From Octopus vulgaris (Eukaryota): a DNA stretch of 64,000 bases. Shown in pieces: positions 51,016-51,540 of the stretch. The DNA is taken from NCBI GenBank assembly GCA_951406725.2, contig OX597820.1, positions 82,026,001-82,090,000 of the forward strand, in the 5' to 3' direction. How positions within the stretch are numbered: position 1 is the stretch's first letter; every line of letters starts with the position of its first letter. Both the position numbers and the translations under genes were made by a program. Under the pieces are notes generated by a model. The model ran no database searches. It was not told the origin of the DNA and worked only from the letters and a program-made list of their open reading frames with translations.

Positions 51016-51540
51016 TATTATTATTATTATTATTATTATTATTATTATTATTATTATTATTATTATTATTATTATTATTATTATTATTATTATCATTATT
51101 ATTATTATTATTATTATTATTATTATTATTCAGGTGACTGCCTAGAATCGAACTCGGAATCTTGGGGTTTGAAGCCCGCGCTCTTAACCACTACGCCATA
51201 TGCCCATGGGCGTAGTGGTAAACAGCGCGGGCTACTAACCCAAGATTCCGAGTTCGATTCTAGGCAGTGACTTAAATAATAATAATAATAATAATAATAA
51301 TAATAATAATAATAATAATAATAATAATAATAATAATAATAATAATAATAATAATAATAATAGCATCGAAAAATACCTTAGGAATGAGAACCCAGGTTCG
51401 AAATTTCCCCAAGACACCTGATGAAGTCTGGAGGGTATATCAGTCGAAACGTTGTGTTAACAACAAACAAGAAGAGGACAAATATCCGTCAAATTTAAAT
51501 AATGTAAATAATGCAAATAATGTACATAATTCCATAATAT
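51016..51540 (+). mobile_element. Palindromic double tRNA-head element followed by a hammerhead motif
   Basis: (TTA)n, inverted tRNA-like head 51131-51197, direct head 51209-51274, (TAA)n, unique segment, HHR 51413-51458. Confidence 0.8.
51413..51458 (+). ncRNA. Minimal type I hammerhead ribozyme motif
   Basis: GACAC-CTGATGA-a-gtctg...cagtc-GAAAC-GTT-GTGTT; palindromic AACGTT stem III. Confidence 0.7.

Follow-up and report, generated by a model that had tools for sequence, protein, structure and literature searches.

What sort of element carries two tRNA-like segments back to back, with a hammerhead ribozyme behind one of them? The question is raised by a locus of Octopus vulgaris (assembly GCA_951406725.2, contig OX597820.1) within a stretch of 64,000 nucleotides, positions 82,026,001 to 82,090,000 of the forward strand, here called the window. 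A first-pass annotation had proposed a non-autonomous SINE driven by Pol III, processed by its own ribozyme and copied by Penelope machinery. Direct reading of the window confirms the palindrome that it described, (TTA)n, reversed head, head and (TAA)n, followed by the minimal hammerhead. The reading favoured here, which we regard as probable, is that the repeat is the pLTR of an autonomous Penelope/Poseidon-type element, inserted head-to-head, and that the tRNA-derived A/B-box segment within it is likely an internal Pol III promoter setting the 5′ end of the RNA. The copy in the window is almost certainly a dead, ordinary head-to-head Penelope insertion. Its parts, in window coordinates, are as follows.

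50119 to 50135, minus strand: 17-nt inverted stump of the family's outer ('long tail') end; exact match, probable left terminus of the same insertion
50180 to 51015, plus strand: broken mariner transposase fragment between the stump and the left arm, not the element's own (Pfam; start approximate)
51016 to 51130, minus strand: (TAA)n spacer of the inverted left arm, reading (TTA)n on the plus strand (direct reading)
51131 to 51205, minus strand: left-arm head, derived from a tRNA; A box at 51198-51188 and B box at 51153-51145; profile E 8e-4
51203 to 51210, no strand assigned: hairpin apex CCC-AT-GGG, the head-to-head junction, at the family's common 5′ end
51208 to 51272, plus strand: right-arm head, derived from a tRNA and short of 7 nt; remnant of the A box at 51209-51218, B box at 51252-51260
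51275 to 51362, plus strand: (TAA)n spacer, whose length differs from copy to copy
51384 to 51535, plus strand: ATG and first ~50 codons of a Penelope ORF (MRTQVRNFPKTPDE...), reading through the hammerhead
51413 to 51458, plus strand: minimal hammerhead of type I, predicted to cut at 51453/51454; one pair of stem II is mismatched here
51490 to 51535, plus strand: AT-rich tandem units and right-hand end of the copy, close to the 'short' 3′ end site of the family

How tRNA-like are the heads? The two are 91% identical across 64 nt and both carry the B box GTTCGATTC. That each has an A and a B box, as had been claimed, holds for both B boxes and for the A box of the minus head, which is complete, but the A box of the plus head is without its first base; in the family majority both boxes are intact. 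What had been taken for an 11-bp spacer between the heads is the family's 5′ hairpin, GCCC-AY-GGGC, next to a plus head with its 7-nt deletion. Derivation of the head from a tRNA is supported by a profile made from this genome's real tRNA genes, which gives E 8e-4 for the minus head and 0.86 for the plus head, and tRNA-Arg is the nearest among ten anticodon types sampled. No intact acceptor stem can be read in the head. Rfam at gathering thresholds and ARAGORN gave no match in the window, and Rfam in E-value mode scored tRNA no better than E 1.8 and missed the hammerhead. At 51741-51905 and 11705-11870 are copies of another tRNA-type SINE, a common one, which BLAST does not relate to the head.

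The element had also been described as abutting the break in a mariner. The mariner fragment is real, matching Pfam HTH_48 (PF17906, E 4e-15) and Transposase_1 (PF01359, E 1e-8), but instead of adjoining the element it probably lies within the left arm; because an inverted stump of the outer end stands beyond it at 50119-50135, the order of events would be mariner into element and not element into mariner. For that 17-nt exact match shuffles give an expectation of 0, there are 0 matches across 287 kb of unselected loci, and the stump is probably of the same insertion as the palindrome.

The hammerhead itself is borne out, with its predicted cut after GUU. It consists of stem I GACAC/GTGTT, the core CTGATGA with one extra A, a 5-bp stem II (in the window copy with a T.T mismatch at the second pair), GAAA and the palindromic ACGT. 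Among 142 copies that span the motif the core is intact in 87, and 67 of these keep all five stem II pairs. The extra base between 9 and 10.1 and the palindromic 15.2-16.2 match features described in PMC4209133, and a minimal pLTR hammerhead with both is as found in EN+ Penelope-like elements (PLEs). Does cleavage then process the copies, as had been proposed? Only one of 74 5′-truncated tails starts exactly at the cleavage site, and 3′ ends lie ~70-105 nt beyond it. Hammerhead cleavage does not mark copy ends, and the tandem monomers bounded by ribozyme cleavage that characterise a retrozyme are not what these tails display. Other loose matches to the hammerhead core pattern are at 4669, 6235, 20571 (minus) and 57039 (minus) of the window. 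A further short repeat, with CTGAAGA...CGAA, has two copies that are 84% alike, at 51571-51700 and 51961-52081, and is possibly the decayed hammerhead tail of a different family.

Are head and hammerhead neighbours by chance? The segment with the hammerhead, thought at first to be unique, is a high-copy repeat with 2536 first-look candidates. It lies downstream of the head in 26 of 29 other head-selected loci, with an inverted one upstream in 20 of them; when exact matches to the head motif are taken in genome order, the first 30 have it downstream in 27 and inverted upstream in 20. Copy counts leave out the window's own locus, doubly fetched loci and two of the three duplicated loci L201-203. 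Such co-occurrence rules out a chance juxtaposition.

What the head is joined to on its other side is more telling. The C-terminus of a GIY-YIG endonuclease is directly upstream of it in three loci, and walking from those yields a single ORF of ~2.4 kb with Penelope-type RT and endonuclease motifs, the RT recognised as Pfam RVT_1 and the GIY-YIG domain read from motifs and alignment, as the Pfam copy used did not score GIY-YIG. A PLE-type RT with a C-terminal GIY-YIG in one ORF is thus present, in copies every one of which is broken; as they are ~7% diverged from the majority, no intact master is among the copies examined. (The family ORF majority retained one frameshift, and its two open segments were analysed separately.) In endonuclease-selected loci the head follows the ORF stop by 30-40 nt in 25 of 29, and the tail comes after it in 27. 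In N-terminus-selected loci the tail leads directly into the ORF start in 10 of 30, and two of these copies, L136 and L148, start with the head. An open frame runs from the ATG across the hammerhead and into the ORF in L122, L130 and L136, out of nine copies tried, with a stop in one and truncation before the ATG in three; the in-frame peptide from the ATG is retained in an intact homolog, P0001 (53% identity). From the ORF stop, then, the unit crosses 30-40 nt to the head and goes on through (TAA)n, the ATG and the in-frame hammerhead to the ORF. Because the head-(TAA)n-hammerhead-tail unit both follows the ORF stop and reads into the ORF start, it is a pLTR, with the same segment at either side in partial tandem. 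Comparison of the tail with the pLTR of an autonomous PLE, a check that had been advised, identifies it as the first ~50 codons of the RT/GIY-YIG ORF.

The partner is not to be found among the Penelope relics of the window noted earlier near 1530, 12000 and 45500. They are real Penelope relics, but of other families, the first with 31-34% amino acid identity to this one and the other two with no match to it. Their extents are 1526-2489, 11975-12400 and 45598-47076; they represent two other Penelope-like families, served as controls, and the first has a T-rich 3′ end. When a distant RT query was used to look in the genome for a sister Poseidon family, all 30 loci fetched of 150 scored proved to be of the family described here.

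And the palindrome? Divergent promoters had been suggested for it; a designed pair of them is not supported, the inverted arm being the ordinary head-to-head product of Penelope and most copies being one-headed. Penelope insertions are described as having inverted 5′-truncated partners and a one-sided tail of 30-40 bp (Craig 2021, PMC8557442), and a palindrome with a one-sided 34-nt tail is that known anatomy. The 3′ ends of 156 tails from 115 loci are bimodal, at two sites, one per arm, which loose ends of reads and contigs also place 34 nt apart. Of 46 paired arms, 25 are long plus short, 13 long plus other, 8 neither and none long plus long. An inverted 5′-truncated partner (20 of 30) with a one-sided 34-nt tail (0 of 46 long plus long) is as in EN+ PLEs. 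For the anole element PAc, both strands are reported to be cut and extended, with reverse transcription beginning internally, at two such sites within the ORF, ~55 nt beyond the start sites required and hammerhead cleavage dispensable (Frangieh 2024, PMC11167929). The near absence of tails that start at the cleavage site accords with the last point. That the insertion was made by Penelope machinery, as the first-pass annotation held, is supported. The family has every testable feature of a Penelope-like element and lacks defining features of SINEs and of retrozymes.

Several junctions merit separate mention. One copy has a fold-back palindrome where its 5′ truncation falls within the ORF (L041:1004-1171), which suggests cDNA self-priming at other positions too. 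In L122 and L123, at ~1835-1960, an A-rich run precedes the junction between internal ORF sequence and a head with the usual 5′ boundary; a template jump off an RNA 5′ end could account for it. Other elements are inserted within the pLTR (TAA)n in L011, L014, L017, L030 and L050, and the insert in L014 ends in the peptide KIVLTGTAHVL, which we take to be Dong/R4-like.

Where do copies begin? Among 28 independent genome-order copies, 24 start 0-7 nt upstream of tRNA +1, three have ORF upstream and one starts at -26. Counts of exact 22-mers, 4356 for the head (a pattern with two degenerate positions) and 790 for a 22-mer 36 nt upstream, with 0 for reversed controls, display the same step, whose size varies with the method: 5.5-fold genome-wide by 22-mers, ~2.4-fold in the first 82 Mb of C1 and ~2-fold in read and contig depth. 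The boundary recurs in contigs labelled as three other organisms, which span the ORF-head junction. Many junctions at the head's 5′ end are not fold-backs. By extrapolation from the 22-mers the genome would hold roughly 15,000 heads of the family. Do the short copies constitute a lineage of their own? There are 0 majority differences between the heads of 67 short and 60 ORF-linked copies, and a single one, inside a variable tandem unit, between 55 short and 54 ORF-linked tails; continuation into the ORF after the tail is found in none of 30 genome-order copies. Judged by their sequences, short and ORF-linked copies are one family with no subfamily split. Trimming by RNase P is unlikely as the source of the 5′ ends, most of which run past +1 of a head that has no acceptor stem.

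How might such copies be made? By analogy to PAc, the Penelope protein would nick both strands of AT-rich DNA, with reverse transcription primed internally at two sites 34 nt apart. The first pLTR-ORF junction would be the one primed, and a short stretch would be copied back to the RNA 5′ end. The cDNAs would extend ~270 nt plus the repeat, run off at the promoter-set end of the RNA and be joined, by microhomology or by fold-back at the GCCC-AY-GGGC hairpin, to give the palindrome. Short copies would be dead-end products and not SINE masters, and, since priming copies a short stretch back to the RNA 5′ end, their pile-up would map the start site. The tRNA-type segment in the terminal repeat of the family is, at somewhat better than even expectation, what sets the RNA start, with Pol III as the putative polymerase. 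Ends that fall 0-7 nt upstream of tRNA +1 are some 7-14 nt ahead of the A box, the distance at which Pol III is expected to initiate; this position and the two intact boxes favour that polymerase.

Might Pol III even transcribe the whole element? On the sense strand there is no TTTT in the 2346-nt ORF majority and none in the pLTR. Synonymous shuffles of the ORF majority give 2.7 (P 0.037), and AAAA runs number 28. One in-genome control family has 10 TTTT runs in 1.6-1.7 kb; a second has 0-4 T runs per majority, which is not significant. Related ORFs of similar T content average 2.5 TTTT per kb. However, 3 of 33 related ORF stretches of at least 1500 nt are also without TTTT, and two of the three are of one family without a tRNA head, so its absence is not specific as a marker of that head. 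In a related family (L326, L339, L340, L343, L354) the ORF is without TTTT, the UTR is T-rich and there is no tRNA head. RNA-seq runs under the same organism label had both strands equally represented, 66-71% of reads running into unlike sequence and no start pile-ups.

Relatives from metagenomes bear on how widely the layout recurs. A first scan with P0001 as query gave no match; 79 relatives were later gathered, 75 were scored, and a quick tree was made of them. In that tree an intact tandem Poseidon-type element, L302 (tandem period 2791), shares a clade of SH-aLRT 96 with the octopus family. Between its stop and its in-frame hammerhead, at L302:2741-3100 of a metagenome contig, is an A/B-box pair followed by a short TAA-like run. 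The A/B-box pattern, which matches the minus head of the window, has three matches over 692 kb, two of them in L302 and the third at a flanking tRNA-like repeat. The tRNA-like segment of L302 has a profile E of 1.4 and an alignment score of 30, the best among 41 control UTRs being 28, and Rfam on L302 gave no tRNA match. It is a candidate for a weaker version of the family's layout. Each unit of L302 has just two TTTT runs, and no run of T is longer. L303, of the same clade, has no head in the flanks examined.

An ambitious proposal would draw these strands together: end-to-end Pol III transcription (~2.7 kb) of a coding element from a captured tRNA promoter, with the coding strand purged of TTTT terminators, in a Penelope lineage with recurring tRNA-headed pLTRs (L302), and with the line between SINE and autonomous partner blurred. 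We consider it doubtful. Two points tell against Pol III as the polymerase at all: uncapped Pol III RNA is a poor mRNA, and the known promoter of Penelope is of the Pol II Inr/DPE type (PMC2377424).

Might the tRNA-like segment instead be a passenger, such as an ancient SINE that inserted into the master's pLTR and became fixed there, with Pol II transcribing the element and the pile-up due to a nearby Pol II start or to hairpin fold-back during reverse transcription? Other Penelope elements do have internal Pol II promoters, and the pile-up coincides with the apex hairpin, which by itself could produce it; the fold-back inside the ORF of L041, the lack of an intact acceptor stem and the headless L303 point the same way. 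Yet the ends fall at the distance expected of a Pol III start, many of the junctions there are not fold-backs, both boxes have stayed intact in the family majority, and L302 has a similar pair of boxes at the same position. A passenger tRNA segment is unlikely. The proposal with which the locus was first described, a self-propagating Pol III SINE that came from the pLTR and is mobilised in trans by the Penelope protein, can draw on the great excess of short head-started copies over ORF-linked ones (24 of 28), on a unit with both boxes and without TTTT, on a tRNA-derived 5′ head such as SINEs have, and on precedents in pLTR-derived retrozymes and in the schistosome SINE-like hammerhead elements known as Sm-alpha and Sj-alpha. 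The same unit, however, is the terminal repeat of the autonomous element, from whose ORF-linked copies the short ones have no diagnostic difference across the 67 and 60 heads and but the one tail position. An independent non-coding family with masters of its own is not what is seen, as the body is the ORF N-terminus. In place of a LINE-derived or simple-repeat 3′ tail there are Penelope internal start sites, with (TAA)n internal. The short copies end at reverse-transcription start sites, 0 of 30 entering the ORF, where PAc needs ~55 nt beyond. There is no pile-up at the cleavage site, and on informal inspection the loci examined showed no tandem arrays of the short unit. A separate SINE is distinctly improbable. 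As for a Tc1/mariner-type fold-back element or MITE, with long TIRs CAG...CTG and a TA target duplication, many palindromic copies do end in GAACTG-TA; that TA is the continuation of the ORF (GAACTGTATTATCT), the long end is on one arm only (none of the 46 pairs being long plus long), the arms differ in length and the sequence joins the RT ORF without a break. ORF continuation and one-sided long end refute the symmetric TIRs and TA duplication of a MITE, and this last idea can hardly be right.

Were the favoured reading, a Penelope pLTR with its own tRNA-type promoter, correct, what would follow? By the accepted division (PMC10886601), Pol II serves autonomous retrotransposons and Pol III serves SINEs; an element that codes for protein and carries a tRNA-type promoter within its terminal repeat would cut across it. 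Internal priming would be seen to yield SINE-like copies directly, as by-products. The short copies, in their thousands, would serve as a genomic map of the RNA 5′ end and of both priming sites, extending the in vitro mechanism of PAc to an invertebrate genome. Annotation tools would likely class such copies as SINEs or MITEs. Should the promoter be a passenger, what is left is an ordinary Penelope insertion with a decorated repeat.

How does the family compare with what has been described? A tRNA-derived A/B-box segment inside the pLTR of an autonomous element is unusual, and undescribed in the literature found: titles and abstracts contain no description of a tRNA-headed pLTR (Repbase, Dfam or supplements may already contain the family), the portion available of a 2026 octopus repeat annotation (PMC13282606) does not mention one, and 'tRNA' and 'Pol III' are absent from the accessible text of a preprint on retrozymes (bioRxiv 10.64898/2026.07.22.740005). 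The animal non-LTR retrozymes (PMC7761336 and the same preprint) are alike in having hammerhead repeats related to Penelope pLTRs, but are described as tandem monomers with circular RNAs, whereas copies of this family are dispersed and head-to-head. The schistosome elements (PMC6765202) are alike in a Pol III-type promoter followed by a hammerhead, but are non-coding tandem units freed by cleavage, whereas here the segment is part of a coding element and its ends are unmarked by cleavage. With the TRIMp3 elements Helenus, Ajax and Cassandra (PMC10886601) the likeness is a small-RNA-derived Pol III promoter, putative in the present case, within a terminal repeat. Those are non-autonomous LTR elements whose autonomous partners, according to that source, have to rely on Pol II and probably do not share the LTR, whereas here the segment sits in the autonomous element's own repeat. 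Closest of all are the EN+ PLEs, as represented by PAc (PMC11167929), the Penelope of D. virilis (PMC2377424) and the elements of Craig 2021 (PMC8557442), with which are shared the single RT and C-terminal GIY-YIG ORF, the pLTR with a minimal hammerhead overlapping the ORF start, the inverted 5′-truncated partner, the one-sided tail of 30-40 nt and the internal 3′ end sites. From these the octopus family differs in that a tRNA-derived A/B-box segment and (TAA)n open its pLTR, where their described promoter is Pol II Inr/DPE, and in that its ATG is upstream of the whole hammerhead and not at stem II.
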